A stretch of DNA of 64,000 nt. It comes from a virus. The notes below the pieces were generated by a model. That model was not told the DNA's origin. It saw only the letters and a list, made by a program, of their open reading frames with translations, and made no database searches. Where the stretch lies: the IMG/VR virus record IMGVR_UViG_3300035670_000087. The stretch is one strand, 5' to 3'. The position numbers and the translations under genes are program-made. Below are positions 2,001 through 61,433 of the stretch, piece after piece. How positions within the stretch are numbered: the first letter of the stretch is position 1; the number at the start of each line of letters is the position of its first letter.

Positions 2001-3215
2001 TTAAGCTAAATTAAATCGTCTTTTATAGTTTGCATAGTTGTCTAGTATTTCAATATTAGATAGGTTTCTGTTGTATATTTTAGCCACGGCTACATATCCA
2101 CTAAATGGGTACCAATTAGTAGTCTGACCATCTCCTATATTAATACTGTTGCCTAAATTAGTTGGAGATCCTGAAAAAGTGTTAGACCCTCTAGATACCC
2201 CATTTATATAAATGGTGTTGGTAGTATTTACACCATCATAATATCTAGTACATACTACATGATTCCACACATTTAGAGATATAGTACCAGCTGATGTTGT
2301 TACTGTTCTTTGTACAGATGCTATATAATCAGAAAATATAATGCTATTTCCTTGATATACTCCCATATATGGTAAGAAACTTCCCATAAACATATTAAAA
2401 GTGTTTACACTTCCTAAGCATTTTATAACTACTTCAAATGTTGCATTTGCTCCTGGATACGTTATATCTGTTGTTATATTATCATCAGTTCCATCAAAAA
2501 GTAAAGATCCGCTAGCATCAAAAGATACTGAGGTTAAATCTATACCTATATTTTTAGATAGGTTATATAAAGATTGAGTTGAAGACCTAGTTGCTGCTAC
2601 TGGTAAAAACTGTCTAGGTCTCAGTACTTGAGATCCTTGACTTATCATAACTCCTGCTAATTGGACTTTGTTATAGGTGGCATACTCATAATGAAATAAA
2701 TAAGGCCTTATATAAGTAGCACTAGCATTAGTTGTAAAAGTTCCCCACGCATGTTTCCAACCTCCTCCTAAATCTTCTTGTCTGGTTGAGTCTAGCAATC
2801 CAAACTCCGATATAAGTCCTGAGGCTCCATATTGGTATTGGTACATATAGTTAGGACTTGAATATCCTGTTTCTGTTCTATATATTATCTGATACACGTA
2901 CTCCGTACTAGCATTTACAGAAATCTGATTAAAATAGAATAGATTTGGACAACACTGGCCGGATCCTCCAACATAATCGTTATATATATTACAATATGTT
3001 ACATTTCTAACTCCTCCCAATCCTTGTATATATACATCTTCTGTGCCGTAGTTAGTTTTGAAATAGAGGGTATCATTTGTACCTTGAAGATTGGTAATCA
3101 AGGGTACTAAATTAGTAGTAGGCTTACCTTTAAAACAATTATAAGGGTCTCCGGTATCATATGAAAATATCATACCATTAGTCACATTTTTAGAAAATCC
3201 TTGATTAGCTGCCAT
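2001..3215 (-). CDS. LamG/concanavalin-A-like lectin-domain virion protein with a central CBM-like domain
   Basis: FDGTDD, WNHVVCT, IYINGV, FSGYVAVAKIYNRNLSNIEILDNY are LamG-like beta-sandwich motifs. Confidence 0.85.
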   Translation of the reverse strand: MAANQGFSKNVTNGMIFSYDTGDPYNCFKGKPTTNLVPLITNLQGTNDTLYFKTNYGTEDVYIQGLGGVRNVTYCNIYNDYVGGSGQCCPNLFYFNQISVNASTEYVYQIIYRTETGYSSPNYMYQYQYGASGLISEFGLLDSTRQEDLGGGWKHAWGTFTTNASATYIRPYLFHYEYATYNKVQLAGVMISQGSQVLRPRQFLPVAATRSSTQSLYNLSKNIGIDLTSVSFDASGSLLFDGTDDNITTDITYPGANATFEVVIKCLGSVNTFNMFMGSFLPYMGVYQGNSIIFSDYIASVQRTVTTSAGTISLNVWNHVVCTRYYDGVNTTNTIYINGVSRGSNTFSGSPTNLGNSINIGDGQTTNWYPFSGYVAVAKIYNRNLSNIEILDNYANYKRRFNLA

Positions 3216-39953: not shown

Positions 39954-40253
39954 TTATATATCCATTCTGATTAAAAAATTGGTATCTGTGTCTGGGGAAA
40001 TTGGTATCGGTTGTGCAAATTTAGCTACCATCAATAAGTCATTAGAATCATTGTAAAATCCTACCATGGTAGCATATGGAGTAAAATCAGACCCGCTGGC
40101 AAACCCAACCATAGTCTCCTTACTACATGCTGTTAATAAAGAAGGATTATAACTATATCCCATTTCGTGATCCTTAATAGTACACTTTATACTCCTCTCT
40201 ATTATTAAGTGGTTATTAGAAAATTGTAGATTAAAGTCCTCGTATCCTGGCAT
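39954..40253 (-). CDS. Stand-alone C-terminal domain of a baseplate/fibre-attachment protein
   Basis: YSYNPS...PYATMVGFYNDSNDLLMVAKFAQPIP matches the C-terminus of the 51777-52847 protein (YTTNPS...FPTTIGLYNDSNELLAVAKLSKPLP). Confidence 0.7.
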   Translation of the reverse strand: MPGYEDFNLQFSNNHLIIERSIKCTIKDHEMGYSYNPSLLTACSKETMVGFASGSDFTPYATMVGFYNDSNDLLMVAKFAQPIPISPDTDTNFLIRMDI

Positions 40254-40263
40254 ATATTATATT

Positions 40264-41022
40264 TTATGGACAAATTCCTGCATCTGAGCATGCATATGTC
40301 GTTTGTATAAAGTCCCCGTTAGTTACTGCAACACTATTTACAGTTTTTATAGTTGCTTTTACACTTCCATTTGAGAATCCAGAAGTTAAGTTAGTCGTCC
40401 TGTAAACCAAAATAATGTCCTGATAACCTTCTGCTGGAATAGTTATGTTAGTACTTGTTGCATCAGTTAATACACTTGGAACATTAGCAGCTAGTACTGT
40501 AGCAGATACCTGTGCTAAGAATGTAGACTCAGGAGGTGTAGTTTGAGGTAATATTGTAGTACTTAATCTACCGCTAATACAAGCAGAAGGTCCGCTTATA
40601 CTTAGCATATAGTGCTGTGCGTACAATTCTACTCCTATTACAGCTCCTACAGGACCTCTTAAACGAGTCCATACTTTACCCCCTTGTCCACATATATTTA
40701 AGTATCCTGTGTAGCTAGAATCAAATAGTACAGGCATTGTAGTTGGTGTTGAAGTTGGAGTAGGTGTGGATGTTACTGCAGGAGTTGGTGTTGGGGTCAA
40801 TGTAGGGTTAACTAGATTATATGAAATACTGTCAGTGCAGACTCCAGTAGATGTTACAGTTATTTGAGTAGAATTGACATCTGTATTTACATTAAACCCT
40901 GCTAATAACTGATCTCTGGTTACTCCTATTGCTATAGTACCTAAAACATTATCTGATATTGTGAAAGGCCCTGCGGAAGTACCTATACTAGAAAGACTTA
41001 CTGTGGCTACTCTTGTTGGCAT
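40264..41022 (-). CDS. Putative virion appendage protein with Pro/Thr linker (paralog C)
   Basis: N-terminal AGPFTI...LLAGF..C domain, PTLTPTPTPAVTSTPTPT linker, beta-rich C-terminus. Confidence 0.65.
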   Translation of the reverse strand: MPTRVATVSLSSIGTSAGPFTISDNVLGTIAIGVTRDQLLAGFNVNTDVNSTQITVTSTGVCTDSISYNLVNPTLTPTPTPAVTSTPTPTSTPTTMPVLFDSSYTGYLNICGQGGKVWTRLRGPVGAVIGVELYAQHYMLSISGPSACISGRLSTTILPQTTPPESTFLAQVSATVLAANVPSVLTDATSTNITIPAEGYQDIILVYRTTNLTSGFSNGSVKATIKTVNSVAVTNGDFIQTTYACSDAGICP

Positions 41023-41023
41023 A

Positions 41024-41773
41024 CTATCCCTCCCATATTTGAATACTTACGAAATCGGTTGATATTATATTAACAGATAGATAAAAATCTATAACATCAT
41101 TCATATTAAAGTTGTAAGATTGGTAAACAGTTCCATTAACTTGTATCATAACGTATCCAGCATCCATTGCTGTATTCGTTGGAGATATTTTCCTAACCCT
41201 ATACACAACTTCGTTTGATACTCCCTCTGTTATATAAGAATCGTTTTTACCATAGGCTGGTATAGTGGAACTTGCCACGTTTATAGTATCTAAGCTAGCT
41301 CCTGCGGTGCTATTGAATATCTCAAACACATTTGAAGGGGATATATCATTCAATACTACCTGGGCTCTATTCCTAACTGTAGCTCCAGTAGGTGTAGGCG
41401 TAGGCGTTGATGTAGCTGTTGGAGTTGCTGTAACAGTTGGAGTAGGTGTAGGAGTGGCATTTTCTGCTACGGTAACAGACATTCCAAACAATGTACAATT
41501 TAATATTGTCGGGAATGGGGTTGGTGTAGGAGTAGATGTAGGCACAGGAGTAGGAGTATACTGTATGACTTGGTAAACTTCAGAATTTCCGCAATACGGA
41601 TCTGAATTTACTACTATAATTGTAGCAGGACTGCCAGCTATGGTTACTGAATACCCTGCTAGTAAAGACGCTCTATCTACGCCACTATCTACCAGTGTTC
41701 CTTCAGAAATACTGTTATAGTAAATGTCAAACGGGCCTGCTGCGTCTCCTGATATAGTAACTATAAAATCCAT
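41024..41773 (-). CDS. Putative virion appendage protein with Pro/Thr linkers (paralog B)
   Basis: N-terminal AGPFDI...LLAGY..C domain and two PT-rich linkers. Confidence 0.65.
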   Translation of the reverse strand: MDFIVTISGDAAGPFDIYYNSISEGTLVDSGVDRASLLAGYSVTIAGSPATIIVVNSDPYCGNSEVYQVIQYTPTPVPTSTPTPTPFPTILNCTLFGMSVTVAENATPTPTPTVTATPTATSTPTPTPTGATVRNRAQVVLNDISPSNVFEIFNSTAGASLDTINVASSTIPAYGKNDSYITEGVSNEVVYRVRKISPTNTAMDAGYVMIQVNGTVYQSYNFNMNDVIDFYLSVNIISTDFVSIQIWEG

Positions 41774-41774
41774 A

Positions 41775-42860
41775 TTATATAAATATAGTTTTGTTTACTT
41801 TTGACAAAGCGGATCCTATTACTTGATGCATATCGTAGTATTTGTAATCAGCAAGTCTACCTCCAAAAATATATTTAGTTTCTATATTCATTAAACTTTT
41901 ATACTTATTATACTTAATATTATTTTCAGTATCATTTATAGGATAATAAGGGTCTCCATTATTTTCAGGAAATTCCATAGATATTACAGTGTTACTTTGT
42001 TTGCCATACTCAAAATGCTTGTGTTCTGTTATCCTAGTAAACGGGACTTCCTCGTCCGTATAATTCATCCCAGCAACTCCTTGATAATCACTCATTTGAA
42101 GATTGTATGTCTCAAATCTCAAACTTCTGTAATCTAGTTTTCCAAACTGATTATTATAAAATTCATCTATAGGTCCTGTATAGATTATTTTTTTAGCTAT
42201 GGATTCAAAATAGTCCCTGTCTTTAAAATAATCATAGTTTAGTCTAACATTTATACCTTTTAACAGTTTTTGGAATATTTGAGTATAACCTCCTATGGGT
42301 ATCCCAGAGTAAGTATCGTCATAGTAATTATCATCGAAAGATAACCTTATTGGAAGCCTTTTTATTATACTAGTAGGTAAGTTTTTTGGATCCTTATTCC
42401 ATTGTTTTTTTGTATATCCTTTTATAAAAATATTATAAATCTCAGGACCTACTTGAGAAATAGCCCAATCTTCTAAATTCTTTGGGTCATTTATATTTAC
42501 TTTAACATCCTCTAGCTTCCTAAAAGCTTCATCCGGAGTCGTCACTCCATAGATTTGATACAACGTCATTAAATTTATAGGAAAAGAATATATACTTCCT
42601 TTATAATTTACTTTCGGCCTATACTTAAAATCATTAAACTCTGCGTACTTTCTTACGTAGTCCCATATATTTTTATCAGAGGTATGAAATATGTGAGGAC
42701 CGTATTTATGTACATTTATACCTTCCGTATTTTCAGTATAACAGTTACCTCCTATATGAGATCTTTTGTCTATTACTAAACACTTAAACCCTCTATCGGT
42801 TAATTCTCTAGCACATACAGCTCCAAATAGACCTGATCCTACAATTAAATAATCAAACAT
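41775..42860 (-). CDS. glf: UDP-galactopyranose mutase
   Basis: IVGSGLFGA FAD motif, HIGGNCY, HKYGPHIFHT, GYTKKQW, TRITEHKHF, PYYP, GGRLADYKYYDMHQVI. Confidence 0.97.
   Translation of the reverse strand: MFDYLIVGSGLFGAVCARELTDRGFKCLVIDKRSHIGGNCYTENTEGINVHKYGPHIFHTSDKNIWDYVRKYAEFNDFKYRPKVNYKGSIYSFPINLMTLYQIYGVTTPDEAFRKLEDVKVNINDPKNLEDWAISQVGPEIYNIFIKGYTKKQWNKDPKNLPTSIIKRLPIRLSFDDNYYDDTYSGIPIGGYTQIFQKLLKGINVRLNYDYFKDRDYFESIAKKIIYTGPIDEFYNNQFGKLDYRSLRFETYNLQMSDYQGVAGMNYTDEEVPFTRITEHKHFEYGKQSNTVISMEFPENNGDPYYPINDTENNIKYNKYKSLMNIETKYIFGGRLADYKYYDMHQVIGSALSKVNKTIFI
41778..41785 (-). promoter_or_regulatory. TATTTATA putative late-promoter motif overlapping the last codons of glf
   Basis: 4 nt upstream of ATG 41773. 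Confidence 0.55.
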
Positions 42861-43469
42861 TTATTTCTTTATATATAGAGCATCTCCCCATTTATGAACT
42901 GTCATAAAAGTTTCAACTCTTGTTAAATTATATTTTGACAAATACTCATCTATTTCACTTACAAGTGCACAATCTTGATACAAATAATCTTCATTTACTT
43001 CGCAATACACGTAGTCAAATTTACTTAAATAATCCTTGAATCCTTTAAAAACCTCTAATTCATATCCTTGTACATCTACATTTAAAAAGTTATACATGTC
43101 GATATTAATATTATTATCTAAAATTATATCTGACATTGTTTTTATTTGTATCTCTACTTCTTTTATAAAATTAACATGTGGATGTTCTTTTTCATGAGTT
43201 CCTAATTTTAAAAAAGAAGAAGATTCTCCATTATTTGCTATTTTAAATGTCTCTATTTTATTCTCGTTACCTACCCCAGATATGATAACAATATCATTAG
43301 GACATCTTGATTTGAGACCCTCCTCATACTCTGGATTGGCCTCCACCCAAACAATAGGATTTATGCTATTACTTTCATACCAACCCTTTTCTTGTCCGTG
43401 GTGGGCTCCTATATGTATAGCTCCTTTTAGTGGGGTTATAAAGTGCTTCTTGAGATCTGTTATTAACAT
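42861..43469 (-). CDS. FkbM family SAM-dependent methyltransferase
   Basis: IHIGAHHGQE, VWVEAN, FLNVDVQGYELEVFKG, WGDALY. Confidence 0.92.
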   Translation of the reverse strand: MLITDLKKHFITPLKGAIHIGAHHGQEKGWYESNSINPIVWVEANPEYEEGLKSRCPNDIVIISGVGNENKIETFKIANNGESSSFLKLGTHEKEHPHVNFIKEVEIQIKTMSDIILDNNINIDMYNFLNVDVQGYELEVFKGFKDYLSKFDYVYCEVNEDYLYQDCALVSEIDEYLSKYNLTRVETFMTVHKWGDALYIKK

Positions 43470-43472
43470 GTA

Positions 43473-44246
43473 TTATATTTTTAAAAAATTAGAACAATAT
43501 AAATCATTCACATTCCAATCGGAATATCTTGATCCAAACCAAGTTATTGGAGCTATTATTTTTTTATTTTCATTGGTGCTTAGCCAAGATCCCCACCAAC
43601 TAAAGGTACTATTTGCTATTATGTGATGGTCGCATTTTGATATTAGACACATGTCATGAGCTAAGTCCTGTTTGTTGTATATTATGTTGGGGATTTTAAA
43701 ATTATCTTTGCACCATACTATGTCATCTGAGGTACACACAAAAACTACATCTTCCCCATCTAACATTTTAATAGCCTTATTATAGTACTCTATAGTACAT
43801 AAAGGATGGGCATCCGGATATAGCAAATAATCTCCTCTCCTCACATGCAAAGACACTTTTACTTTATTTTCATAGGGTTTTAAAAAATTATCTACCTTAT
43901 TAGATATTTCTTTTTTGAAAGTATACTCTTTTTTAACTGCGCTAGGACAATGTTCAAAATACTTCTCAGTCTGGAAATACCCTCTAAAATTAGTACTTGT
44001 ATCTATATTAAAGACTCCTTGATCAAAATGAAAGTGTTTTTCCTGATATAAGTTTAGTGTGTAAGTCTCTTTAATTTCACATTCTTTTATATCAAAAAAA
44101 TCAAATAGATAACTTCTTTTTTTTACTTCTGGGTGTATTACTATATCTGCCTCTATTTTATACTTTACTCCTAATAGTAATGCATATTGGAACATTTGAT
44201 TTCCTAATTGTCCATATTTAGCAAGAAAATCATAAGTAATTACCAT
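43473..44246 (-). CDS. GT11 alpha-1,2-fucosyltransferase-like glycosyltransferase
   Basis: GQLGNQMFQYA, GYFQTEKYF, SLHVRRGDY, SDDIVWCK, IIANSTFSWWG. Confidence 0.93.
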   Translation of the reverse strand: MVITYDFLAKYGQLGNQMFQYALLLGVKYKIEADIVIHPEVKKRSYLFDFFDIKECEIKETYTLNLYQEKHFHFDQGVFNIDTSTNFRGYFQTEKYFEHCPSAVKKEYTFKKEISNKVDNFLKPYENKVKVSLHVRRGDYLLYPDAHPLCTIEYYNKAIKMLDGEDVVFVCTSDDIVWCKDNFKIPNIIYNKQDLAHDMCLISKCDHHIIANSTFSWWGSWLSTNENKKIIAPITWFGSRYSDWNVNDLYCSNFLKI

Positions 44247-44947
44247 TCTGCTGGTTTTTGAACTACATTATATATATACTTATCAGCTATAGATAAGGTA
44301 TAGTCCACTTCTGAAGATTCTATATCAGAATAGTTTTTTCTCTGAGTTACTAAATTTTTAAGAGACATGTATATTTTATTTTCTTTCCTCTGACCTAAAT
44401 TACCATAATACCCATCATTACAAGGATAACTTCTAAAAAAATTTGAATTAGTCAATATTTTGTCATAAAATTTATTATTAATAGCATAAGCGTGATTAGT
44501 TGTTGTTCTTATAACTCTGCCTAAATTATCAGTTTCTTTATAGTATTCTAATGGGTTGCACCCTAAATAAAACATATCCCAATCAATATTAGACAAATCA
44601 TTAACGCAGTTTGCTAAATCTAATACTATATTATCATCAAAAGAAGCATCGTCTTCAAATATCAATACATTTCTATAGTTCATCATTTTACTTCTTAATA
44701 AAACTGTAAGATGAGACATAGTACATGACTTTATTCTTGGGGCATACTCTGGTCTTGGGGTATCATAAAAATCACAACCTCTTTTTACTAAATCATCATT
44801 TTGCTCTTTAGTAAGACTTATTGCAGAAAACCTTTCTGCTTCTATATCATATCTTTTAAATTGATCTTCCATGTACTCTTTTCTATCTACACGGTGATCT
44901 AAATTTATATAATATATTTTGTCAAAAAAATGAAATGGATTTTTCAT
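44240..44947 (-). CDS. GT25 family glycosyltransferase (beta-galactosyl/glucosyltransferase-like)
   Basis: YYINLDHRVDR, ERFSAI, SCTMSH, LIFEDDA, WDMFYLG, HAYAIN. Confidence 0.88.
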   Translation of the reverse strand: MKNPFHFFDKIYYINLDHRVDRKEYMEDQFKRYDIEAERFSAISLTKEQNDDLVKRGCDFYDTPRPEYAPRIKSCTMSHLTVLLRSKMMNYRNVLIFEDDASFDDNIVLDLANCVNDLSNIDWDMFYLGCNPLEYYKETDNLGRVIRTTTNHAYAINNKFYDKILTNSNFFRSYPCNDGYYGNLGQRKENKIYMSLKNLVTQRKNYSDIESSEVDYTLSIADKYIYNVVQKPAEW

Positions 44948-46035
44948 ATAAATTCATTTAGTAAATTAATCCATAAGTTTCCAACTACTTCTATATTAAA
45001 ATTGTTTTTTATAAGATCTTTAGATCTATTTCTTATATCATTTTTTACTTCAGGATTGTTTTCTAAGTAGATTAACTTTTTGACATACTCACTATGATCA
45101 TTCATGTATTGTGCGTCACAAGTCACTTTCTCATTTAACATTTTTTCCATATCTGTTTCAACAGGAAAATCTACATATACACATCCTGGGCTAAAATACT
45201 CAGGTATGGCTCCTAAAGGATAAGTCAGTACTATAACTCCAGCAGCTATTGCTTCAGCTACTGAACAAGAAAATGTATCCTTGTAAACACAACCATTTGG
45301 ATGGTATAAAGGAAATATAAAATAATCAGTCTCTAATAATTTATAAAATAACTCTTTTTTATCTGTGCCGTTTTGAGGGTTTACATAATCAAATGTATAC
45401 ATTTTTTCCCATCCAAGTTCTAATACTGTTCTATTTGCTACATCCCCTCCTCTTCCATATTGAGCATGGAATATAGAACTTTTTTCTTTTCTAACTATTT
45501 TTTCTTCTTTCTCAATCTTTTCTATTAACTCGGTCATTATTGGATTCGGAATAATTACGTCTACAGTATTTTCTATTTTCTGTTTACCTAATTCTACATT
45601 CCAATCATTTTGGCTTCTAGACCATTTTGATATATTAACAAACCCCATTTTTAATTTATGAGTATTGCAAAAATCGATCATCTCGTTTATACAATAAACC
45701 CATGCCATGTGGTACCAGTATAATAGCCCTTTGGTTACTTTAAAAGGTATTTTATCATACTTATCAAACCAAAGAGCCGTTATTAAAATATCAACATCCC
45801 CTTGCCCTATAAAACTTTTATAATCAAAATCATCGTAACTAACCCCCCTGCATTTTTGTCTGTCAGTTTTATCTAAAACTATAGTTACGTCATGACCTTT
45901 TGTAGCAAGATACTCTGCTATCATAATAACAGACTGATCTGTTCCGGAAGCAGGCGCTTTACCTTCTCTAATAGTATCTCCATTTAATATTTTAGGCCTA
46001 CCTTCAGTACCTACTAATATAAAAACAATTTTCAT
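44944..46035 (-). CDS. GT-B fold glycosyltransferase, GT4-like
   Basis: DYFIFP...DTFSCSVAEAIAAGVIVLTYPLGAIPE (E-x7-E type motif with D variant). Confidence 0.85.
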   Translation of the reverse strand: MKIVFILVGTEGRPKILNGDTIREGKAPASGTDQSVIMIAEYLATKGHDVTIVLDKTDRQKCRGVSYDDFDYKSFIGQGDVDILITALWFDKYDKIPFKVTKGLLYWYHMAWVYCINEMIDFCNTHKLKMGFVNISKWSRSQNDWNVELGKQKIENTVDVIIPNPIMTELIEKIEKEEKIVRKEKSSIFHAQYGRGGDVANRTVLELGWEKMYTFDYVNPQNGTDKKELFYKLLETDYFIFPLYHPNGCVYKDTFSCSVAEAIAAGVIVLTYPLGAIPEYFSPGCVYVDFPVETDMEKMLNEKVTCDAQYMNDHSEYVKKLIYLENNPEVKNDIRNRSKDLIKNNFNIEVVGNLWINLLNEFI

Positions 46036-47285
46036 TATAATACTTTTTCGTATCTATCGCTCCATTGTTTTTCCTCATCAAATAAATACATTACTATTTT
46101 TTGAGGTTTATCAGAAGTTTGAATATTGACTGTAGTCTTGTTTTTTTCCAATTTTACATATTCAGGACTTTCCTCAATTGTAAAATCTTTTCTATACAAT
46201 TCAACTCCACTTCTAGTATGTACAGCAAAAGTTAAAAATTTAGGATTTTGAAAGTCATACTGTTTAAAAAATTCAACATCCCATTCGCAATCAAAAGTAT
46301 ACTTAGTTAATACAAACTGATCTTCCCAAGGTTCTGGATTTGGTGGTTCTTTTACTTTTAGGGTGTACTCTTGTATTCTACAATTCTTAAAATCAAATCC
46401 TCCATAAACTTCGTAATCATGTAAAGATCTTACGTCTCCTAGTCCATACATTCCCATATCTATACCATGATCCTCCTGTCCAAAAAGTTGCCTTGTTTTG
46501 TTCCTAGCAAAAATATCTCTTTCCCCAGAAGTTTTTTTAGTTTGACTTTCTAATCCATGATCGTCCCAATGCTTTACACGATAGTTTCTCGTGTACTCGT
46601 GCCACATTACCATTCGATATGGGCTGAAAAAATCATATCCTTTTGTGAAAGCTCTGACGCTTAGTGTAGTTTCTTCTGTGTACCCTCCAAAATATATGTC
46701 TGGGTCATATGGTACCTCCTCTATGAACTTTCCTGATGTAAAATAGAAATGGCCGCTTATAGTTCGGGCTCTTATAACTTTATCCCTCTCTTTATAATCT
46801 TGTATGTACCATGGCATACTCATTAAGAGTTTATCAGCAGAAAATTCATACTGAGACATTAAACATGGTGTTTTATCGTATTTACACGAACAATCTTTAG
46901 GATTAAACGGAGTGCAATAAGTAGTTATAATTGGTTTTTCGGATACTTGAAGAGCTTGATTATAGTCCTCCAGTACGATCTCATCCCAATCCTGAACAAA
47001 TCTATGGTGGCTATCTATTTGTAAAGTGTATTTTTCACCATCATATAATTTGTTTGTTATGTTTCTTGCCCAACCTAAACCTTGACTTTCAGAATAATGA
47101 TGTTTACTTATTCTGACATTTTCCATGTGATCTAATACACTAATATCTTCTGTTTCGTCATATTGCCAACAAATGCCAAAAGTTAAATTATTAGCATTTT
47201 TTGCCTTGGTTATCATATCATCAATAGTAGGAATAAGTTCAGGATCTCTATAACTAGCTATTTGCACAAATATCTTATTATTCAT
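46035..47285 (-). CDS. GT60-like (Skp1/mucin-type) peptide N-acetylglucosaminyltransferase
   Basis: IFVQIASYRD, QGLGWAR, LQIDSHHRFVQDWD, ISGHFYF, VPYDP..YF.GYTEE..LSVRAFTKGYD, WHEY. Confidence 0.85.
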   Translation of the reverse strand: MNNKIFVQIASYRDPELIPTIDDMITKAKNANNLTFGICWQYDETEDISVLDHMENVRISKHHYSESQGLGWARNITNKLYDGEKYTLQIDSHHRFVQDWDEIVLEDYNQALQVSEKPIITTYCTPFNPKDCSCKYDKTPCLMSQYEFSADKLLMSMPWYIQDYKERDKVIRARTISGHFYFTSGKFIEEVPYDPDIYFGGYTEETTLSVRAFTKGYDFFSPYRMVMWHEYTRNYRVKHWDDHGLESQTKKTSGERDIFARNKTRQLFGQEDHGIDMGMYGLGDVRSLHDYEVYGGFDFKNCRIQEYTLKVKEPPNPEPWEDQFVLTKYTFDCEWDVEFFKQYDFQNPKFLTFAVHTRSGVELYRKDFTIEESPEYVKLEKNKTTVNIQTSDKPQKIVMYLFDEEKQWSDRYEKVL

Positions 47286-47302
47286 AAACTAAATTTACAC
47301 AA

Positions 47303-47310
47303 CAAATATA
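47303..47310 (-). promoter_or_regulatory. Bacteroidota -7 promoter element in front of the glycosylation operon
   Basis: TATATTTG (TAnnTTTG) in the 35-nt gap, 17 nt upstream of the ATG; -33 TTTG not well matched. Confidence 0.55.
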
Positions 47311-47320
47311 GTAAAATTAT

Positions 47321-48880
47321 CTATAAAGGAACGCAAGATCCGCCAGAACATACTAAAATATCTAAAACTTGTCCACTACTATCTACTTCCATAATTCTGA
47401 AAGGACCCGTATTAGTATCTGTGCTAGTACTTGAGTATGCATAAAATCCTGAAGATGCTATGTCAACAAAGTCTCCTATAGATAATGAGTTGTAATCGTT
47501 ATCTGATCCTATTTGGGTATTTATCAGATAATTAGTGGCTCCGCAGAAAGTACTACAAACTCCCTGTGCTCCGGATATATAAATTGTTTGAGGGAACGCT
47601 GGGGTCGGCGTAGGAGTTGCTGTAGCAGTAGGGGTTGGGGTTGCTGTAGTACAAGAGGAGATCTGCGTTATTTCTCCAAATCCATCTATTTCTTGGTATC
47701 TATAGCAAGTTGTTCCATCACTATAATAGAAGTTGTAGAATACCTCATTTGTAAGAGAACTATCAAAGAATAATCTTGATCCTATAACCAATGGACTGTC
47801 TGCGCTATATATAGAAACAGGCTCCATGTATTCGCAAGCTACTGCACAAGTAGAAGCATAATCAAAGCTATAGGAAAAAGAGTTTACGGTAGGTGTAGGT
47901 GTTGGAGTTGCTGTTGCTGGTATAGGAGTTGGGCTAGGGGTAGCTGTAGCTGGTATAGGAGTTGGTGTAGGAGTTGCTGTTGCTGGTATAGGAGTTGGTG
48001 TAGGAGTTGGTGTAGGTGTTGATGTAGGTACAGGTGTAGCTGTAGCAGGTACAGGTGTGGCTGTAGGTGTTGATGTAGGTACAGGTGTAGCTGTAGCAGG
48101 TACAGGTGTTGGAGTTGCTGTTGCTGGTAACGGTGTTTCGGTAGGTGTTGATGTAGGTATCGGTGTTGCTGTAGCAGGTACAGGTGTTGGGCTAGGAGTA
48201 GCCGTAGGTACAGGTGTAGCTGTAGCTGGTATCGGGGTTGGAGTAGGGGTTGCTGTAGGTGCTTCAGTAGGTACTGGTGTAGCTGTAGCTGGCACAGGGG
48301 TTGGAGTTGGTGTAGCTGTAGGTACTGGTGTAGCTGTAGCAGGTTCAGGAGTTGGTGTAGGAGTTTCAGTAGGTGTAGGTGTTGCTGTAGCAGGTATAGG
48401 AGTTTCAGTAGGTGTAGGTGTAGGTGTAAATGTTGGGGCTCCTATAGGGGTAGCTGTAGGAGTAGCCGTTGCAGGTACAGGTTCTGTAGGAGTTGGGCTA
48501 GGGTCAGGAGTTGGTGTAGCAGGTTCAGGAGTTGGTGTAGGAGTTTCAGTAGGTGTAGCTGTTGGAGTAGCTGTAGCAGGTATAGGAGTTTCAGTAGGTG
48601 TTGGTGTAGAAGTAGGAGTAGAAGTAGGAGTAGCAGTAGGAGTAGGGGTAGCAGTAGGACAGTTTATTGGTATATCAACAAAACTTCCTGTACATAATCC
48701 TAAAGGTCTGACTTCTATACTAGTAGCAAAATCATCTATAGTAACGGTAACTCCTGCTAATAGCTCAATTCCTGTTGCTGTACTAGGAACTGCACTTCCT
48801 ATATTTGGAGACATAGTAAAAGTAGGTCCTGATGAGGAGCTTCCAGTTGAAGTCAATACTACTATTACTTGTTTCGCCAT
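47321..48880 (-). CDS. Mucin-like virion appendage protein, about 255-aa Pro/Thr/Ala tract (paralog A)
   Basis: N-terminal SGPTF...LLAGV..C domain, long [10 protein letters not shown] repeats, two small Cys-containing C-terminal domains. Confidence 0.7.
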
Positions 48881-48891
48881 TTTCTATTTTA

Positions 48892-48899
48892 TATAAATA
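48892..48899 (-). promoter_or_regulatory. TATTTATA putative late-promoter motif
   Basis: Intergenic upstream of the mucin-like gene. Confidence 0.6.
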
Positions 48900-48912
48900 C
48901 TACACAACTTTA

Positions 48913-51759
48913 TTATACCAATCCTATACTTCTTACATTGTAGTAACTATCGGCAACGGTTCTTACGTCATCGGCTGGATAATAGCTAGCTCCTCCATTA
49001 TAGGTCTGGAGTTCCCAATAAGCTTCCCACCCTTCAGTTACACCAGGTTCTACACCAGTAGAAGTTGCTATAGCTCTGTATATTCTAGATTTATGAGTTA
49101 CATACCAAGTATTGTCATAAGGAGCCAATATATCCCAGTACATAAACCTATGATGATCGAAGCCAGGGCCTATATAATAGTTCTCAAACTGTACATCTAT
49201 AACTGATGTTTGTACGTTGTTATAGTTAATTGTCCAGTCAGTTCCTCCTACAAATGTAGTTACATCTCCAGTGTTGTCAAAAATATTGTTTCTAAACAAT
49301 AATGGAGATGTTGGACTATTCTCCATTCCATTTTCTACAACATTTGTATTTGAATTTGGACTTAAGAAGAATCCAAATACGTTATTATTAATGTCTGTAG
49401 TAACAGGTGGATATGGTACATTGTAGCTTGGTCCTCTTAAGAATAAGCCCCTAGCCCCAGAGAACTGGTCTGTTCCTCTATTAGCAGGATCGTACATTCC
49501 TATGTATAATACAGCATTATTCTCACAAAGAGTTGTTCCTCCAGTAGGAGGATAATCAATAACATCCTCAAAGAAGTACTGTATGCCTGCGTACCCCATT
49601 GTTCCTACAAGCAGATTATTTCTGAAAGAAGTCCCTCCATCAGTTATTGCTAAGTTAACTCCTAGATCTTGACCTTCTTCATTATCTAAGCCTACACTTA
49701 CAATAGCATTATTATATATGTCAGATCCGGAAACCATTCTTTTAACCTGTACTCCATCATACCCACATCTAATAAATCTGTTATTATATATTTCTATGCC
49801 TTTATAAACTTCAAAAGTATCTACACCAGTAAAGTATCCCCAATAAAGACCTTCTCCGGATATATCATGGAAATAACAATCGTGTATTCTTATGTTTTCT
49901 ACAACTGCGTACCTGTTATCTATGCTTTGGTTGGTGTACCCACCGTTTCCGGATTCTATGTACTCTACTTCGTAATTTGTTGCATGGTATACAGTTGTTC
50001 CAATAGTAGCAGCGTCTATTTGAAGCAAGTTTCCTGTAGAATTTTGCCACCTATTGTTAATAAAGATACCATATTTACCTTGGCTCCATGCGTAACCAGT
50101 GTCATGTCCTTGGTAGCTTATGTCTCCTGTCTTATTAGCTGCATCGTACTTACCTGTTAACTTAAAGTAAGACATGCCCTCTATATGCAAAGTTCTTGTT
50201 TCTACTTGGCCGCAGAAGTTTGTTATTACAATAGGATCTTCTGCTGTACCAGCTGATGAGTTGGTTATTCTTATAAAATCATACCTAATTCCACCTCTAA
50301 TCAATATCTTATTCCCAGGACCTAAAGTAAAGCTAGTATCAGTTAAATTAATTGCAGGAAGTCCTGCACTAGTTTGAGTTCCTCCTAATACTATAAGATC
50401 TCCTACCGTTACATTAGGTATAGTGGCCGCATCTTCAGAAGTTGCGTATCTAAAGTTAGCACTGCTAGGAGAAGGTATAGAAGGACATCCTGCGCTAAGT
50501 GTCGGTGTAGGAGTAGGAGTTCCAGTTACAGTAGGAGTAGCTGATATTGTTGGAGTTGGTGTTGGTGTAGGGGTGGCTGTTGTTAAGCCTACGCAATAAG
50601 CTATACCAGTCAATGTACCACAGAAAAGAGTTGGTGTTGGTGTAGGGGTCGTTGTGGCTGTAGGTGTAGGTGTTGATGTAGGTGTTGCTGTAGGCAAAGG
50701 AGTTGCAGTTGCCGGAGGCATTACAAATGTAGGAGTTGCTGTAGGAGTAGAAGTAGGTGCTGCGGTAGGAGTGGCTGTGAAAGTAGGCGCAGGTGTTATA
50801 CTTGGTCCAGGTGTGGAAGTTGGTACAGGTGTTGGAGTAGGTGCCGGTGTTGTTACATCTTGTACAATTAGAACAAAACCACAAAGAGGCCTTTGTACAT
50901 TTACTGTTATTTTAGCAAAATTTGAAGGAAATGTACAAGAACTTGTTGTAGTTGTAGCTAAGAATTGATAAGAAGTTTCGTATGTTCCAGGGGTTGCTTG
51001 GGTAAATGATAAAGTACCGTTACCAACATTAGTAAAAAATGAAGAATCTCCCCCCGAAAGGACCAGAGATTCTGTAGCCAGTGTTAACCCTCTTAAATCA
51101 TCATTAGCTGTTGGATTTATGCTATACGGAACATCAGCTGGGCTTATAGTAAAAGTATCGTCTTTTGCATAAGGAGCTAAAATAAATATAGTTTGGTAGT
51201 CTTCATGAGATATAACTGCTACACCTTGTCCATAAAAAATATTACCAACAAGAGTATATGGATCTGTAGCTAGATCAAATATATTACCTTTTCCGTCATC
51301 TTGTAGATTATAAAGAGAAGTAGATATGTTAAAAGACAACTCTTTAATAGATTGTCCGTACACTTCTTTGGACACAGATAATACTTTTATTTCAGCTCCA
51401 GAAGCTGTTGGTAAAGTTTTAATCATGTAGCCTACAGGAATGTAGTCAAAATAAGATCCAGATGCTCTATAAATAGAAGCATCTTCGTAGTAATTTGATT
51501 CTAAATTAGATGTATTATCTAATAAAGACCCTGAAAAGTATTGATAATATAGATGGTTTATGGAATCGTATACAAACCTGTCGTATTCATTGTAAGTCTT
51601 TTCATCGTTACTATAGTCAAAAGTAGTATCGGTTTTTACTCCATTTAAAACTCTTATCCCATAAGAACTTAGATCACAAGAACTAATCGTCCACTCCTTA
51701 TTTGCAATATAAGGAATACTTACTACATCTGACTTATATAGACGTTTGTATGATGACAT
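48913..51759 (-). CDS. Baseplate-anchored spike: baseplate-type N-terminus, Ig-like domain, PT linker, parallel beta-helix, C-terminal CBM5/12-like module
   Basis: VGNIFYGQG; APYAKDD; RIHDCYFHDISGEGLY, IYNNRFIRCGYDGVQ, IYNNAI beta-helix rungs; WYVTHKSRIYRA...EPG...W..YW. Confidence 0.7.
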   Translation of the reverse strand: MSSYKRLYKSDVVSIPYIANKEWTISSCDLSSYGIRVLNGVKTDTTFDYSNDEKTYNEYDRFVYDSINHLYYQYFSGSLLDNTSNLESNYYEDASIYRASGSYFDYIPVGYMIKTLPTASGAEIKVLSVSKEVYGQSIKELSFNISTSLYNLQDDGKGNIFDLATDPYTLVGNIFYGQGVAVISHEDYQTIFILAPYAKDDTFTISPADVPYSINPTANDDLRGLTLATESLVLSGGDSSFFTNVGNGTLSFTQATPGTYETSYQFLATTTTSSCTFPSNFAKITVNVQRPLCGFVLIVQDVTTPAPTPTPVPTSTPGPSITPAPTFTATPTAAPTSTPTATPTFVMPPATATPLPTATPTSTPTPTATTTPTPTPTLFCGTLTGIAYCVGLTTATPTPTPTPTISATPTVTGTPTPTPTLSAGCPSIPSPSSANFRYATSEDAATIPNVTVGDLIVLGGTQTSAGLPAINLTDTSFTLGPGNKILIRGGIRYDFIRITNSSAGTAEDPIVITNFCGQVETRTLHIEGMSYFKLTGKYDAANKTGDISYQGHDTGYAWSQGKYGIFINNRWQNSTGNLLQIDAATIGTTVYHATNYEVEYIESGNGGYTNQSIDNRYAVVENIRIHDCYFHDISGEGLYWGYFTGVDTFEVYKGIEIYNNRFIRCGYDGVQVKRMVSGSDIYNNAIVSVGLDNEEGQDLGVNLAITDGGTSFRNNLLVGTMGYAGIQYFFEDVIDYPPTGGTTLCENNAVLYIGMYDPANRGTDQFSGARGLFLRGPSYNVPYPPVTTDINNNVFGFFLSPNSNTNVVENGMENSPTSPLLFRNNIFDNTGDVTTFVGGTDWTINYNNVQTSVIDVQFENYYIGPGFDHHRFMYWDILAPYDNTWYVTHKSRIYRAIATSTGVEPGVTEGWEAYWELQTYNGGASYYPADDVRTVADSYYNVRSIGLV

Positions 51760-51776: not shown

Positions 51777-52847
51777 TTAGAATTCTAATTTAACTCTACA
51801 AGTAATTTGCTTGGTAAAATCTTTTGGTAATGGTTTACTAAGCTTAGCGACCGCTAAAAGTTCATTAGAATCATTATATAATCCTATAGTAGTTGGAAAT
51901 ACCTGAGGATTATCTATTAGGGTTGCGTATAGTACATTGCCATTGTTATCTATTACAGATGGATTTGTAGTATAATTTAATTGAGAGCTTTTAGCATTTA
52001 CGAAAAAATATCTTGCTGATATTGTTTCTTGGCTATTTGCCTTAAAAGAAAGGCCTGCGCTTATTAATTTATACAACCTATCGTTGTTTATATTGTAAGC
52101 AGCTGAGTAGCTAGTTGCTGCCGTTTCGTCTACTGTCATTCCCACACCAAAATCTCCTGATGATAATGCTAGGGCTCTTGGATTCAATATGAAAACTCCC
52201 ATATCTGGAAAAAATAATCCGTAACTTCCGCTAGCTGTTTGTACTGCCGTAGCGTTGTAACTATTTCCATCAGATCCACTAACTATATAGTAAAATCTAT
52301 TTCCGTTTATAAAGTTAGTAGTAGAGGAGTCTTTACTATTATCTGTTAACTGGATTGTTGTTCCTCCGTTATTTAATATTAAATTCCAAGTACCGGTACT
52401 TATTTTTTCTTTATATCTAGACCTATTGACACTTATGGCAAATATGTCTCTAGAGTTACCTGCTGTAGTTACTGATATTGGGGCACAAGAAGACCCAACG
52501 TTAGCGCTACTCCCAAAATTAAACACAGCTGACTCATCTCCATACACTAAATTTCTATACTGTCCGTATATATCTCTAGTAGGAGATTTCTCATTAACTA
52601 AAGAATTAAACAAAGCGGATCCGCTTCCAGATACATGTCCATAGGCTACTGCATATTGAACCTCTGATCCGCTAGATCCTACAGCTAAGTTATATACATT
52701 CAAATAGTATTTACCGCTTGTCCCTGTTTGTTGAACGCTAGAAGTAAAAGCAGTTGTTAAATTGTATACATTATTAGTCCATAACCCAGCTGTTATGCTG
52801 TCTGAACTTACTACGCTATCATCTTCTTGAAATACTATATAAGACAT
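51777..52847 (-). CDS. Baseplate/tail-fibre attachment protein
   Basis: C-terminal TTIGLYNDSNELLAVAKLSKP resembles the EVGLY..G.L.AVA segment of P2 gpH-type N-domains. Confidence 0.65.
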   Translation of the reverse strand: MSYIVFQEDDSVVSSDSITAGLWTNNVYNLTTAFTSSVQQTGTSGKYYLNVYNLAVGSSGSEVQYAVAYGHVSGSGSALFNSLVNEKSPTRDIYGQYRNLVYGDESAVFNFGSSANVGSSCAPISVTTAGNSRDIFAISVNRSRYKEKISTGTWNLILNNGGTTIQLTDNSKDSSTTNFINGNRFYYIVSGSDGNSYNATAVQTASGSYGLFFPDMGVFILNPRALALSSGDFGVGMTVDETAATSYSAAYNINNDRLYKLISAGLSFKANSQETISARYFFVNAKSSQLNYTTNPSVIDNNGNVLYATLIDNPQVFPTTIGLYNDSNELLAVAKLSKPLPKDFTKQITCRVKLEF

Positions 52848-52849
52848 TT

Positions 52850-53509
52850 TTATTTGTTTTTAGTGACAGTTAAAGGGATTGATATTCTAGCTCCGGAGTC
52901 TCTACCAGTAACTGTTATAGTAGTGCTTAAACTAGTTGTAGAAGTTCCAAACAATGTGTCTATAGTTGTTCCAACTAAAGTAAAAGATGTTCCTATTGCT
53001 GTCTTGCTTATCTGTGTACCAGTGCTGCTATTTACATCAGACACCCCTAAATTTGAAGTATCTATTCCTATGCCTGTAAATGTTGATAGTAACCTAGCAT
53101 CTCCTACTGTCATTACGTATCCACTAGGCTCAAAAGTAGATGTGGCGCCAAGATAGTTTAAAGTCTGTGGAGTTATTACTATCGAAGCCGCTTGTTTTAA
53201 AGTTATAGAACTATTTCCTGTGCTTATTACTGGAAGCTTACTAGTGCCTCTAGGTAGCGTAACTAGTTTATACTTCATTATTTGTGTTTCATCAGGGAAA
53301 GCTTCTAATAGAGGCATATTTTCAATTGCTTCTCCGTAAAATGCAGATCCTGATGGGTGGTTTGGGTTGTACAAGGTATAATCTACCTCATCATCGGCCA
53401 AAGCAAATTGAGTTATTCTAAACGATCCATCATTTCTTGCTAGTAATTCCCTACCTTTTTTGGTAAGTATCGCATCTACAGTAACTACTATGTTATTTAA
53501 ATATCCCAT
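52850..53509 (-). CDS. Baseplate/tail-fibre attachment protein
   Basis: AILTKKGRELLA...ITQFALAD resembles the first strands of P2 gpH-type N-domains. Confidence 0.65.
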   Translation of the reverse strand: MGYLNNIVVTVDAILTKKGRELLARNDGSFRITQFALADDEVDYTLYNPNHPSGSAFYGEAIENMPLLEAFPDETQIMKYKLVTLPRGTSKLPVISTGNSSITLKQAASIVITPQTLNYLGATSTFEPSGYVMTVGDARLLSTFTGIGIDTSNLGVSDVNSSTGTQISKTAIGTSFTLVGTTIDTLFGTSTTSLSTTITVTGRDSGARISIPLTVTKNK

Positions 53510-59537: not shown

Positions 59538-61433
59538 TTAATAAGTTAAAACTCTTCCATATATGTCTGAGTTAGGAAATCTAACTTCGAATATAGAAGG
59601 ATCTAAACTTGGGTATATGATTCCATTTTTAGTAGCGCCTTGTATATCATAACCGTATTGTGAATATCCGCTAGATATTCCATACTTATTTACTATGTCT
59701 ACTTTTACAACACTTTGAACACCTTTTACATTTCCACAACTAATAACGTTATACAATTCTGATAATATTATTGGTTGATTTATTTGCCACTTATCTATAT
59801 CAAAATAAGACCTTATCGCATTTAAACAATCGTTCAAAACCTCTCTACTATTGTACGCAGGTAAAACTATTATGTCAAAATTAATTCCTATGTTTATGTA
59901 ATAAGCATCTTTAATGCTTATAGAATCTGATATTATTTTATATTGGGATATATAAGTTTTTAAATTTTCTTTTACCGCAGGTGATGCTTGAGTTAATTTC
60001 TTTGTAGAATCATAAGACAATATATATAGACTTAAAGCTAATGGATTATCTTCCACAAAATCATATGTATCATCAACTTCTTTTAGTGATAGTTCTTGTG
60101 TAACATATGCTTTAGACACACTTCCAAATTTAGGAGGAAGGCTTAGAGCTCTGATAATATGATCTTCCTTTGTAACATTTCTTAACTGTGCCGGAAAAGA
60201 AGCCATAGTCTTTTGCCTTATATCTTCTACCGTATCTCCAGAACCTCCACCAGACGATGGTAAGTCATTTGTAAAAGAAATAGATCTCTGTATATAAGAT
60301 AGTAACCCCTGATTTAAAGAGTTGGGAGTTAGTGATACAGGGTTTATTGTAATCTCATTTATTTGAGATATATCTCCAGCAGGAACATTTGTTTGTGCTC
60401 CACCTCCTACAAGATACCTAACTGTAAGAGTAGTGTTATTAGGAGCCAAACCATATTCTTTTGTATATATAAAATTTGATGGATCGTATGCTGTAAACAT
60501 TCTATCTACAGAACTTCCGTTACCTATTCCTACATTATCTGGGTTAGGTATTATAACATTATCGTTGTCGCTTACTATTCCGGAGCCAAACTGTAAAGAT
60601 AGTTGGTTATTTTCATCATATCTAGAAACAAATCTTCTGTTAACAGTTCTTAATTTTAATATGTAAGGAGCTGTATTATTATACTGAGCTAACGTTGCAT
60701 CGTTTGAAGCATTATTCAAAACTTCTTCAAATACAGTATTTTGAGCTAAATAAGGAACTTCATACCACTTATTTCCATCGCTATCTACTACATCTAATAT
60801 TTGAATTACATCGGTATCAGGAATAGTTATACTATCAAACTTAACTGCTTGTCCAAATGTAAAATCTTGAGATTTCACTGTACCTGCTACAGCCCTTACT
60901 TTCTTTTTTAGTAAATAATATTCAGGTTGATTTGTTGTCCCATTTATCTGATAAACGCTTATTTCTGTAGGACTAGCAGATGAGGAGAAGCTAAAGTCAA
61001 CAAGATCTTCTGTAACAAATACAATATCTGAATTAGTTCCTGATTTTACTTTTGCCTCTTTTTCTATTATCAAGGAATATGAGTAGTCCGGATTAGCAAT
61101 ACCTCCATTTATAGATGCTGGTAGCTGTTGATATACGGACAATTCCGCTATGGCAGTGCTAACTACTTTAGGCCTATATCCCAAAGTGTATGCCATAGAT
61201 ATTAAATTTTGCTTATCCTGTGCGTATAGTAAAAAGTTTTCTTGAGTTTGTTTATCTACATAAAAAGAAAGAACATCTCCTACATAAGACGCCATTTCAA
61301 TAAACATATTTCCTGGGGTTGCCTCTGTAAAATCATTATATACCTCAGGAAAATAGTTCTTAGCGTACTCTATCAAGGCTTGTTTAAAGCTTGAAAAGTC
61401 CTTGTTTATATATTTAATGTCTTTAGTTGCCAT
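59538..61433 (-). CDS. gp6: Baseplate wedge subunit, T4 gp6 / baseplate-J-like
   Basis: KDFSSFKQALIEY, YNDFTE..PGNMFIEMASYVGDVLSFY, VRYLVGGG, RNVTKEDH. Confidence 0.9.
   Translation of the reverse strand: MATKDIKYINKDFSSFKQALIEYAKNYFPEVYNDFTEATPGNMFIEMASYVGDVLSFYVDKQTQENFLLYAQDKQNLISMAYTLGYRPKVVSTAIAELSVYQQLPASINGGIANPDYSYSLIIEKEAKVKSGTNSDIVFVTEDLVDFSFSSSASPTEISVYQINGTTNQPEYYLLKKKVRAVAGTVKSQDFTFGQAVKFDSITIPDTDVIQILDVVDSDGNKWYEVPYLAQNTVFEEVLNNASNDATLAQYNNTAPYILKLRTVNRRFVSRYDENNQLSLQFGSGIVSDNDNVIIPNPDNVGIGNGSSVDRMFTAYDPSNFIYTKEYGLAPNNTTLTVRYLVGGGAQTNVPAGDISQINEITINPVSLTPNSLNQGLLSYIQRSISFTNDLPSSGGGSGDTVEDIRQKTMASFPAQLRNVTKEDHIIRALSLPPKFGSVSKAYVTQELSLKEVDDTYDFVEDNPLALSLYILSYDSTKKLTQASPAVKENLKTYISQYKIISDSISIKDAYYINIGINFDIIVLPAYNSREVLNDCLNAIRSYFDIDKWQINQPIILSELYNVISCGNVKGVQSVVKVDIVNKYGISSGYSQYGYDIQGATKNGIIYPSLDPSIFEVRFPNSDIYGRVLTY

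Follow-up and report, generated by a model that had tools for sequence, protein, structure and literature searches.

A stretch of 64,000 nucleotides of viral DNA (IMG/VR record IMGVR_UViG_3300035670_000087; "the window" refers below to this whole stretch) carries an operon of six predicted glycan-modifying enzymes, headed by a glycosyltransferase (GT) of the GT60 type and flanked on both sides by genes for proteins with proline/threonine (PT) tracts. The best-supported explanation for this island is that the phage encodes an O-glycosylation pathway for its own Pro/Thr-stalk proteins, a reading to which we assign a probability of roughly 0.6. It is based on the family and fold of the GT60-type enzyme, on gene order, and on a co-occurrence of GT60 genes with PT tracts that is replicated in other phages.

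The enzyme operon and its GT60-type glycosyltransferase

The six enzyme genes are tightly packed on the - strand (41775-47285), with gaps of -7 to +3 nt between them (Table 1). An earlier note on this DNA had read them as genes for GT60-like, GT4, GT25 and GT11 glycosyltransferases, an FkbM methyltransferase and a UDP-galactopyranose mutase (UGM). Pfam recovered the GT60, GT25, GT11, FkbM and UGM assignments, and the mutase also exceeded the TIGR00031 equivalog cut-off (369 bits against 304). The GT4 label was reached only below threshold: the gene scored 21.8 bits with Glycos_transf_1, under the cut-off of 26.4, and the match was 'faint' in the precomputed results for a related locus (L161). 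Its product is likely a GT-B enzyme, with the GT4 family label tentative. No segment of transmembrane-strength hydrophobicity was found in any of the six enzymes.

The GT60-type protein matched PF11397 with 208 bits against a cut-off of 21, its residues 54-300 aligning with profile positions 96-351. An AlphaFold2 (AF2) model built on an alignment of 21 homologues had a mean pLDDT of 84, and its best PDB matches in a Foldseek search, ranks 1-4 included, were the GalNAc-transferases ppGalNAc-T2/T4/T12, PGANT9 and TgGalNAc-T3 (E about 1e-9, identity 13-16%). The template modelling (TM) scores of these matches were only 0.45-0.49 because the targets have two domains. The remaining top matches were TarS, RmlT and TarP, teichoic-acid glycosyltransferases among them, and a phmmer search with the protein against PDB sequences gave no match. 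D91-S92-H93 and H229 are invariant across the 21 homologues and would correspond to the DxH...H metal site of this enzyme superfamily. The model also contains an extra beta domain of ~100 aa at its C-terminal end (residues ~320-416). Family and model point to a putative polypeptide O-N-acetylhexosamine (O-HexNAc) transferase that initiates glycan synthesis. Relatives of this protein number 5277 (90%-identity clusters, E at most 1e-10); nearly all are metagenomic, on contigs of up to about 300 kb, and carry the source names 'hypothetical protein' or 'glycosyltransferase involved in cell wall biosynthesis'.

Operon composition was counted in 39 loci in which the GT60 protein was at least 55% identical and enough downstream sequence was available. 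A GT4-like gene was present in all 39 and the mutase in 35, while GT25 was found in 28, GT11 in 21 and FkbM in 2, in the fixed order GT60-GT4-(GT25-GT11-FkbM)-UGM. Judged by the counts for the GT4-like gene and the mutase, the conserved core is GT60 plus the GT4-like enzyme plus a supply of UDP-galactofuranose (UDP-Galf). This composition points to a HexNAc-Galf core in which the GT4-like enzyme would act as furanosyltransferase; GT25, GT11 and FkbM would be lineage-specific elaborations.

Table 1. Features of the window, in order of position
Feature	Position	Strand	Remarks
PT_719	3217-5376	-	Laminin_G_3 (ConA-like) domain, 166-aa PT tract, small Cys-containing C-terminal module; 35 kb from island
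Collagen-like fibre, 2554 aa	6053-13717	-	Pfam Collagen E 6e-192
Major capsid protein gene	18139-19779		
g99, 99-aa protein	39954-40253		
PT_252	40264-41022	-	Shared N-domain, one PT tract, distinct C-terminal domain
PT_249	41024-41773	-	Shared ~70-aa N-domain, two short PT tracts, distinct C-terminal domain
UDP-galactopyranose mutase (UGM), predicted UDP-Galf supply	41775-42860	-	PF03275 E 6e-75; NAD_binding_8
FkbM-family methyltransferase, rare accessory	42861-43469	-	Pfam E 1.8e-16; TIGR01444 (NCBIfam)
GT11 (alpha-1,2-fucosyltransferase family), optional extension step	43473-44246	-	Pfam E 1.2e-27; phrog_2644 E 6e-72
GT25 glycosyltransferase, optional extension step	44240-44947	-	Pfam E 1.4e-15
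GT-B/GT4-like glycosyltransferase, weak assignment	44944-46035	-	Glycos_transf_1 E 1.5e-4; phrog_2170 E 1e-5
GT60-type (PF11397) glycosyltransferase, putative initiating polypeptide O-HexNAc transferase	46035-47285	-	Pfam E 3.7e-61; phrog_24687
PT_519	47321-48880	-	~70-aa N-domain, ~270-aa PT tract, Cys-rich tip modules split by second PT tract
PT_948, fibre/spike-like	48913-51759	-	Two PT tracts at residues ~298-427
g356	51777-52847		
g356 + g219, conserved genes	51777-53509	-	Anchor upstream side of variable slot
g219, 219 aa	52850-53509	-	Downstream of baseplate wedge homologue
Baseplate wedge homologue	59538-61433		
Motif sites, examples	13753, 17350, 18068, 26297, 28192, 33434, 37998, 41778, 48892, 53526		

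Proline/threonine-tract proteins beside the operon

All ORFs (open reading frames) of the 64-kb window were scanned for PT tracts, defined as at least 75% Pro plus Thr in 20 aa. Tracts were found in exactly five ORFs (PT_252, PT_249, PT_519, PT_948 and PT_719), and four of these ORFs border the enzyme block, two on either side. A rough hypergeometric estimate over about 60 genes puts the chance of this adjacency near 1e-5. The composition scan agrees with the earlier note both on the four flanking genes and on the fifth PT-rich protein. At a looser threshold the PT tracts of the window total 691 aa, of which 35% are Thr, 30% Pro and 5% Ser. The capsid gene and all structural genes outside the five PT ORFs are free of such tracts.

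PT_519, PT_249 and PT_252 are paralogues with a common ~70-aa N-domain, followed by a PT tract and by C-terminal parts that are unrelated to each other. The PT_519 gene lies directly upstream of the GT60 gene. Its orthologue in L161 (7881-9398), whose neighbours are 87-100% identical to window proteins, has kept the N-domain and PT tract and carries a different Cys-rich tip, which suggests cassette exchange of the tips on a constant anchor and stalk. The N-terminal ~300 aa of PT_948 are conserved, with 70-300 aa found in 72 related loci, always directly after a homologue of the conserved gene g356; its C-terminal ~500 aa are unique and without relatives. This pattern fits that of fibres, judging from sequence. 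An Atlas look-up gave a weak beta-helix lead for the PT_948 C-terminus and, for PT_252, another weak lead in the form of virus-only hypothetical proteins with TM scores of at most 0.41. The AF2 model of the PT_948 N-terminus, of good confidence, showed no match to T4 baseplate or fibre proteins, and neither a signal peptide-like start nor a transmembrane segment was found in the PT proteins. The shared N-domains, unrelated C-termini, swapped tip and lack of signal or transmembrane segments fit proteins that interact with the outside world, and we infer that the PT proteins are virion appendages.

Several further observations concern these genes. L161 contains an extra Cys-rich ORF of 173 aa. 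The PT_719 gene has an adjacent paralogue (2001-3215); both encode a Laminin_G_3 (ConA-like lectin) domain, and the PT tract and C-terminal Cys module are present in one only. On the antisense strand of a PT tract (48057-48896, +) there is a long open frame of VGVGVAVAG-type repeats. In L161 (7994-8779, -) the gene call of the Joint Genome Institute (JGI) took such an antisense ORF and split the true 505-aa PT gene into pieces. Because of this antisense mis-calling, PT-stalk genes are likely under-annotated in metagenomic phage records.

Co-occurrence of GT60 genes and PT tracts in other phages

Homologues of the GT60 gene were located in 62 IMG/VR loci, and a PT-tract ORF was present within 10 kb in 33 of them. 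An ORF of at least 100 aa ended within 150 nt upstream of GT60 in 41 loci; 20 of these 41 ORFs encode PT proteins, which fall into six unrelated families once the tracts are masked. PT_519 of the window is a further type beyond those six. Many of the upstream PT proteins resemble beads on a string, with small Cys-rich modules spaced by long PT linkers. Given six unrelated families in the same position, the association of GT60 is, as far as gene order can tell, with the PT tract and not with one protein.

Whole records were also scanned with a TPTPTPT-coding pattern; a control pattern, the same one reversed, hit none of the records scanned. Tracts were found in 23 of 28 GT60-positive records and in none of 13 GT60-negative relatives (Fisher p = 5e-7; 0.0015 for records at least 50% complete). 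The positive IMG/VR contigs (21/26) include complete phages of 335 kb, 257 kb and 244 kb in which the tracts lie far from the GT60 gene; the negative ones, lacking PF11397 (0/11), include two that are 94-100% complete. Among isolates, the Xanthomonas jumbo phages XacN1 and Xoo-sp13 are GT60-positive with 16 tracts each, and Flavobacterium phage immuto and Microcystis phage Mel-JY01 are GT60-negative with zero tracts. One contig with PT ORFs and no nearby GT60 carried PF11397 elsewhere on the same contig. On a tree of the conserved protein g219, the GT60 state changes about four times; window-type GT60 and PT tracts arise jointly in two separate clades of the immuto-like family, and two members of the window's own clade (L105/L107) have neither. 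The expectation of the earlier note that PT genes and the GT cluster would co-occur in relatives is strongly supported by adjacency and by the 23/28 against 0/13 contrast. Replication over unrelated phage groups and unrelated PT proteins is a stronger argument here than the Fisher values.

XacN1 also offers a link to virion glycoproteins. Purified XacN1 virions show at least two periodate-Schiff-positive glycoprotein bands, and the authors propose that the two glycosyltransferases of this phage make them (PMC5852040). One of the two, ORF334, is the GT60 homologue, and it and the Xoo-sp13 homologue are 34-35% identical to the window protein. These phages resemble the window phage in the GT60 homologue and the TPTPTPT-coding tracts; they differ in that they belong to an unrelated lineage with another host, that their GT60 lies among replication genes, and that no GT4 or UGM partners were seen. 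In XacN1 (AP018399.1) the tracts cluster at 124-133 kb, in the paralogous-looking hypothetical genes ORF232-237, and at 272-281 kb, in ORF384 (2823 aa), whose annotation reads glycerophosphoryl diester phosphodiesterase; the products of these ORFs are candidates for the Schiff-positive bands.

The operon might instead remodel a host surface glycan (lipopolysaccharide (LPS) O-antigen, capsule or host glycoproteins), for example as a superinfection block, with the PT proteins as co-cargo of a hypervariable slot. The slot is clearly variable, family descriptions place GT4, GT25, GT11, UGM and FkbM commonly in bacterial O-antigen and capsule loci, and some homologues carry the JGI label 'glycosyltransferase involved in cell wall biosynthesis'. 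We nevertheless regard host-glycan remodelling as unlikely. The island holds no membrane protein, and Pfam detected no phosphoglycosyl transferase, flippase/ABC transporter or polymerase among the ten ORFs of 40264-51759. The lead enzyme belongs by family and fold to the peptide-acceptor enzymes. Host-glycan remodelling would also leave unexplained both the six unrelated PT families directly upstream of GT60 and the co-occurrence with distant genes in the 335-kb, 257-kb and Xanthomonas jumbo phages.

About equally unlikely is that phage proteins are glycosylated but that the acceptors are the collagen-like Gly-Ser/Thr fibre, other virion proteins or host proteins, with the PT tracts serving as plain flexible linkers. 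GT60 adjoins PT genes and not collagen-like genes, and characterised GT60 enzymes have acceptors that match the TP-repeat context. The fibre of the window does hold 1515 aa in G-X-Y triplets (GSS/GTS/GST), X and Y being almost only Ser/Thr, close to the approximately 1500 aa of Ser/Thr-rich repeats described in the earlier note, and GT25 is also the family of collagen galactosyltransferases. For the idea in that note that the fibre is a further substrate, no connection with the enzymes was found, and only 9 of the 62 GT60 loci contain a collagen-like ORF. Other acceptors remain relevant for part of the family, since GT60 carriers without PT tracts exist, among them a distant GT60 clade beside small Thr/Ser-rich fibre-like proteins; some GT60 subfamilies therefore likely use other acceptors. 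A broader (S/T)-P pattern was absent from four PT-negative GT60 contigs, and nothing of note was seen among collagen-like or Ser/Thr-rich ORFs of PT-free GT60 loci.

It is very improbable that the glycosyltransferases hypermodify phage DNA (glycosylated hydroxymethyl-pyrimidines) for restriction evasion. T4-like phages glucosylate their DNA, and in XacN1 and Xoo-sp13 genes for DNA polymerase, RNase H and NUDIX proteins are found near the GT60 homologue. There is precedent for phage DNA being decorated with glycans by several enzymes (Pyle 2024, as cited in PMC12619734). Against DNA as the target, the thymidylate-synthase/hydroxymethylase family was absent from four of five GT60-positive genomes searched (two of three complete ones, and an 80%-complete close relative), the enzyme family and fold indicate peptide acceptors, and DNA modification would not account for the association of GT60 with PT tracts.

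Glycosylation of the phage's own PT proteins by these enzymes, as the earlier note proposed, is thus favoured by adjacency, by co-occurrence and by the peptide-acceptor family and ppGalNAc-T-like fold of GT60, and it is weakened by the PT-free contigs and the distant PT-free subfamily. Several results weigh against it. Two GT60-positive contigs (63% and 89% complete) contain no (S/T)-P repeats, PT tracts are missing from the clade whose GT60 paralogues are distant (30-36% identity), and L078/L079 have PT ORFs while their 32%-complete contig contains no GT60. Relatedness is not accounted for in the Fisher tests, which overstate independence within the immuto-like family, and an independent-pairs sign test on the g219 tree had only 2-4 usable contrasts and is powerless. 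As families, GT25, GT11, GT4, UGM and FkbM typically belong to O-antigen and capsule clusters. None of the four PT proteins beside the operon matched a family in Pfam or PHROGs or any known virion protein family, and the PT_948 N-terminus model gave weak Ig/cadherin-like matches in the PDB. In XacN1, the GT60 homologue lies among replication genes and the glycoprotein bands are not tied to named proteins.

Variants of the GT60 gene occur in related loci. In L125 (4263-10682), the same slot holds a 2-oxoglutarate (2OG)-Fe(II) oxygenase, then a 1205-aa O-FucT (PF10250)-GT60 (PF11397) fusion, then a carbamoyltransferase. The oxygenase beside GT60 is reminiscent of the Skp1 pathway with its prolyl-hydroxylase/Gnt1 pair, and a carbamoyltransferase directly follows the GT60 gene in XacN1 and Xoo-sp13 too. 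L100 (12990-18277) has two tandem GT60 paralogues followed by GT2-like genes, just after short Thr/Ser-rich fibre-like proteins and without PT tracts.

Related systems, possible pathway and genomic slot

To our knowledge, GT60 initiating enzymes are otherwise known only from protists, and phages that glycosylate their particles with enzymes of their own are established only among the mycobacteriophages, with a few other suspected cases. A search of one literature library found no paper linking GT60 enzymes to phages or to PT-tract virion proteins. Virus self-glycosylation itself is already known; what would be new here is the initiating enzyme family, the acceptor type and the wide environmental distribution.

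GT60 enzymes start mucin-type glycans with alpha-linked N-acetylglucosamine (alpha-GlcNAc) in Dictyostelium and T. cruzi and, unlike the animal enzymes, have no ricin domain (PMC8724618, PMC9472816). The T. cruzi enzyme makes GlcNAc-alpha-O-Thr on mucin-like proteins, which is extended later with galactopyranose (Galp) and Galf (PMC8724618, PMC9472816). The phage protein shares with the protist enzymes (TcOGNT1/2, Dictyostelium pp-GlcNAcT2, Skp1 Gnt1) the PF11397 family, the GT27-related GT-A fold and, putatively, the DxH motif with a downstream His and Thr/Pro-rich repeat acceptors. Phage GT60 is linked to a UDP-Galf supply, which recalls the T. cruzi mucin glycans with Galf on GlcNAc-O-Thr, and like the cytoplasmic Skp1 enzyme it is soluble. 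It differs in being encoded by a phage, in that it would act in the bacterial cytoplasm on virus proteins, and in its extra ~100-aa C-terminal beta domain. The metazoan and apicomplexan GT27 polypeptide GalNAc-transferases are its best structural matches and putatively share the DxH metal motif; GT27 acceptors are Ser/Thr/Pro-rich tandem repeats. Whereas GT27 enzymes are Golgi membrane proteins, the phage enzyme belongs to GT60, has no ricin-type lectin domain and is soluble.

Among viruses, the closest precedent for self-glycosylation is that of the capsid and tail tube in mycobacteriophages, which is established (Freeman 2023, as described in PMC12619734). There, as here, phage-encoded glycosyltransferases lie beside structural genes, and the own-virion targets proposed here are shown in that system; according to the same source, the glycans sit on capsid and tail tube C-termini, whereas in the window phage the capsid has no PT tract, the candidates are stalked and fibre-like, and the initiator is of the GT60 type. 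The capsid of the giant virus PBCV-1, a chlorovirus (as cited in PMC5852040), is likewise glycosylated by virus-encoded cytoplasmic machinery acting on the virus's own surface proteins and bypassing the host secretory route, as proposed here, but PBCV-1 is a eukaryotic virus with other enzyme families and acceptor types.

In the window phage, the variable slot between g219/g356 and the GIY-YIG/primase block encodes four modular proteins and an operon of six soluble enzymes. Each modular protein runs from a conserved N-terminal attachment domain through a Pro/Thr stalk to a variable tip. In the mechanism that we consider most likely, these proteins would be made in the cytoplasm late in infection. 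The GT60-type enzyme would then place a HexNAc, probably alpha-GlcNAc from UDP-GlcNAc, on Thr of the TP-repeat stalks, because its eukaryotic relatives do so on protist mucins. The GT4-like enzyme and the mutase would add the next sugar, plausibly Galf, and GT25, GT11 and FkbM would here extend and cap the glycan, plausibly with hexose, fucose (Fuc) and O-methyl. The glycosylated proteins would finally join the virion as stalked fibres or decorations. Gene content, adjacency, co-occurrence, enzyme family and fold and the lack of parts for membrane attachment or export are observations; the acceptor, the sugar identities (GlcNAc, Gal/Glc, Fuc, Galf, O-methyl), the step order, the virion location and the benefit are what we infer. 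As possible benefits the earlier note named stiffening, protection from proteases and mimicry of host glycans. A broader proposal, held tentatively and at slightly less than even odds, is that such a cytoplasmic mucin-type pathway is widespread in uncultured aquatic phages, with a GT60 start and a GT60-GT4-UGM core that probably builds Galf-HexNAc-O-Thr, resembling the core of trypanosome mucins, and turns Pro/Thr stalks into bottle-brush glycoprotein appendages.

If this is true, glycosylated virion appendages would be common among environmental phages, and Flavobacterium-phage-like myophages and several jumbo phage groups would build mucin-like stalks with a supposedly eukaryotic enzyme family. 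Phages would enter the evolutionary history of the GT60/GT27 initiators, with a bearing on the origin of mucin-type O-glycosylation enzymes. The pathway would also bear on how phages stick to hosts, particles or mucus, on their protease resistance, and on the reading of virion proteomics, in which heavily glycosylated PT peptides would be invisible to standard searches. Genome annotation would be affected through PT tracts mis-called on the antisense strand, and the six soluble enzymes of the island would make a compact toolkit with which defined O-glycans could be put on TP-repeat peptides in bacteria.

Terminase, portal, T4-type major capsid and baseplate wedge proteins are all encoded in the window, and the genes of interest are without exception on the - strand. 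The capsid protein is 54% identical to that of immuto and 52% to that of Mel-JY01, and g219 is 69% identical to immuto gp107. These identities place the window phage in the immuto lineage, as a distant T4-like myophage whose host is probably one of the Bacteroidota. A megablast of the island against GenBank phages returned zero matches. At least 582 relatives of g219 were found in IMG/VR. In the best 80 g219 loci the gene order is g795-g717-g219-g356, then a protein sharing the N-terminal 70-300 residues of PT_948; further on come variable content, g99, an endonuclease and a primase. In immuto the slot after the homologue of the PT_948 N-terminus (gp105, hypothetical) holds genes annotated as one tail fibre and two tail spikes, and Mel-JY01 has the same gene frame, closing with GIY-YIG and primase. 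Judged by this conserved frame and its content in immuto, the island sits in a receptor-binding/fibre slot of the immuto-like phage family. It had been placed inside the baseplate/tail module; its actual position is the distal edge of the baseplate/fibre module, followed by the 99-aa gene, a GIY-YIG/HNH endonuclease and a DNA primase. No family was found in Pfam or PHROGs for g356, g219, g717, g795 or g366.

The g99 protein is similar (32% identity, E 2e-7) to a stretch of ~65 residues at the C-terminal end of g356, and a PT protein in L040 ends in a motif similar to the g99/g356 C-terminus, which may be a shared assembly or attachment module. That the island split a baseplate gene, leaving g99 apart from the g356 C-terminus, was ruled out, as island-free relatives keep a separate g99 homologue in the same place. 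In the collagen-like fibre a repeated ~125-aa globular module separates five triplet blocks, and the C-terminal domain is distinct; it is unusual for a collagen repeat of Ser and Thr to reach such a length without proline.

A scan of the island for sigma-70 promoters and terminators gave no excess over shuffled sequence, and no terminator-like site was found between PT_519 and the enzymes. The 35-nt gap before the GT60 gene is without the ATATTTATAT motif described below and holds TATATTTG, which resembles a Bacteroidota -7 box. The sequence TATAAATA, which reads ATATTTATAT-like on the coding strand, occurs 22 times in the window against 14.7 expected, with 18 of the 22 on the + strand. Twelve motif sites, written ATATAAATAT for the + strand and ATATTTATAT for the coding strand, precede start codons of structural or PT genes by 5-36 nt, among them those of the collagen fibre, portal, g219, PT_519 and PT_249 genes. 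A separate ATATTTATAT motif stands 12 nt ahead of the PT_519 ATG, and that of PT_249 lies 5 nt ahead of its ATG, within the final codons of the mutase gene. We regard the ATATTTATAT motif as a candidate for a late promoter or for an initiation signal in this phage group, and its placement fits expression of the PT genes together with the structural genes.

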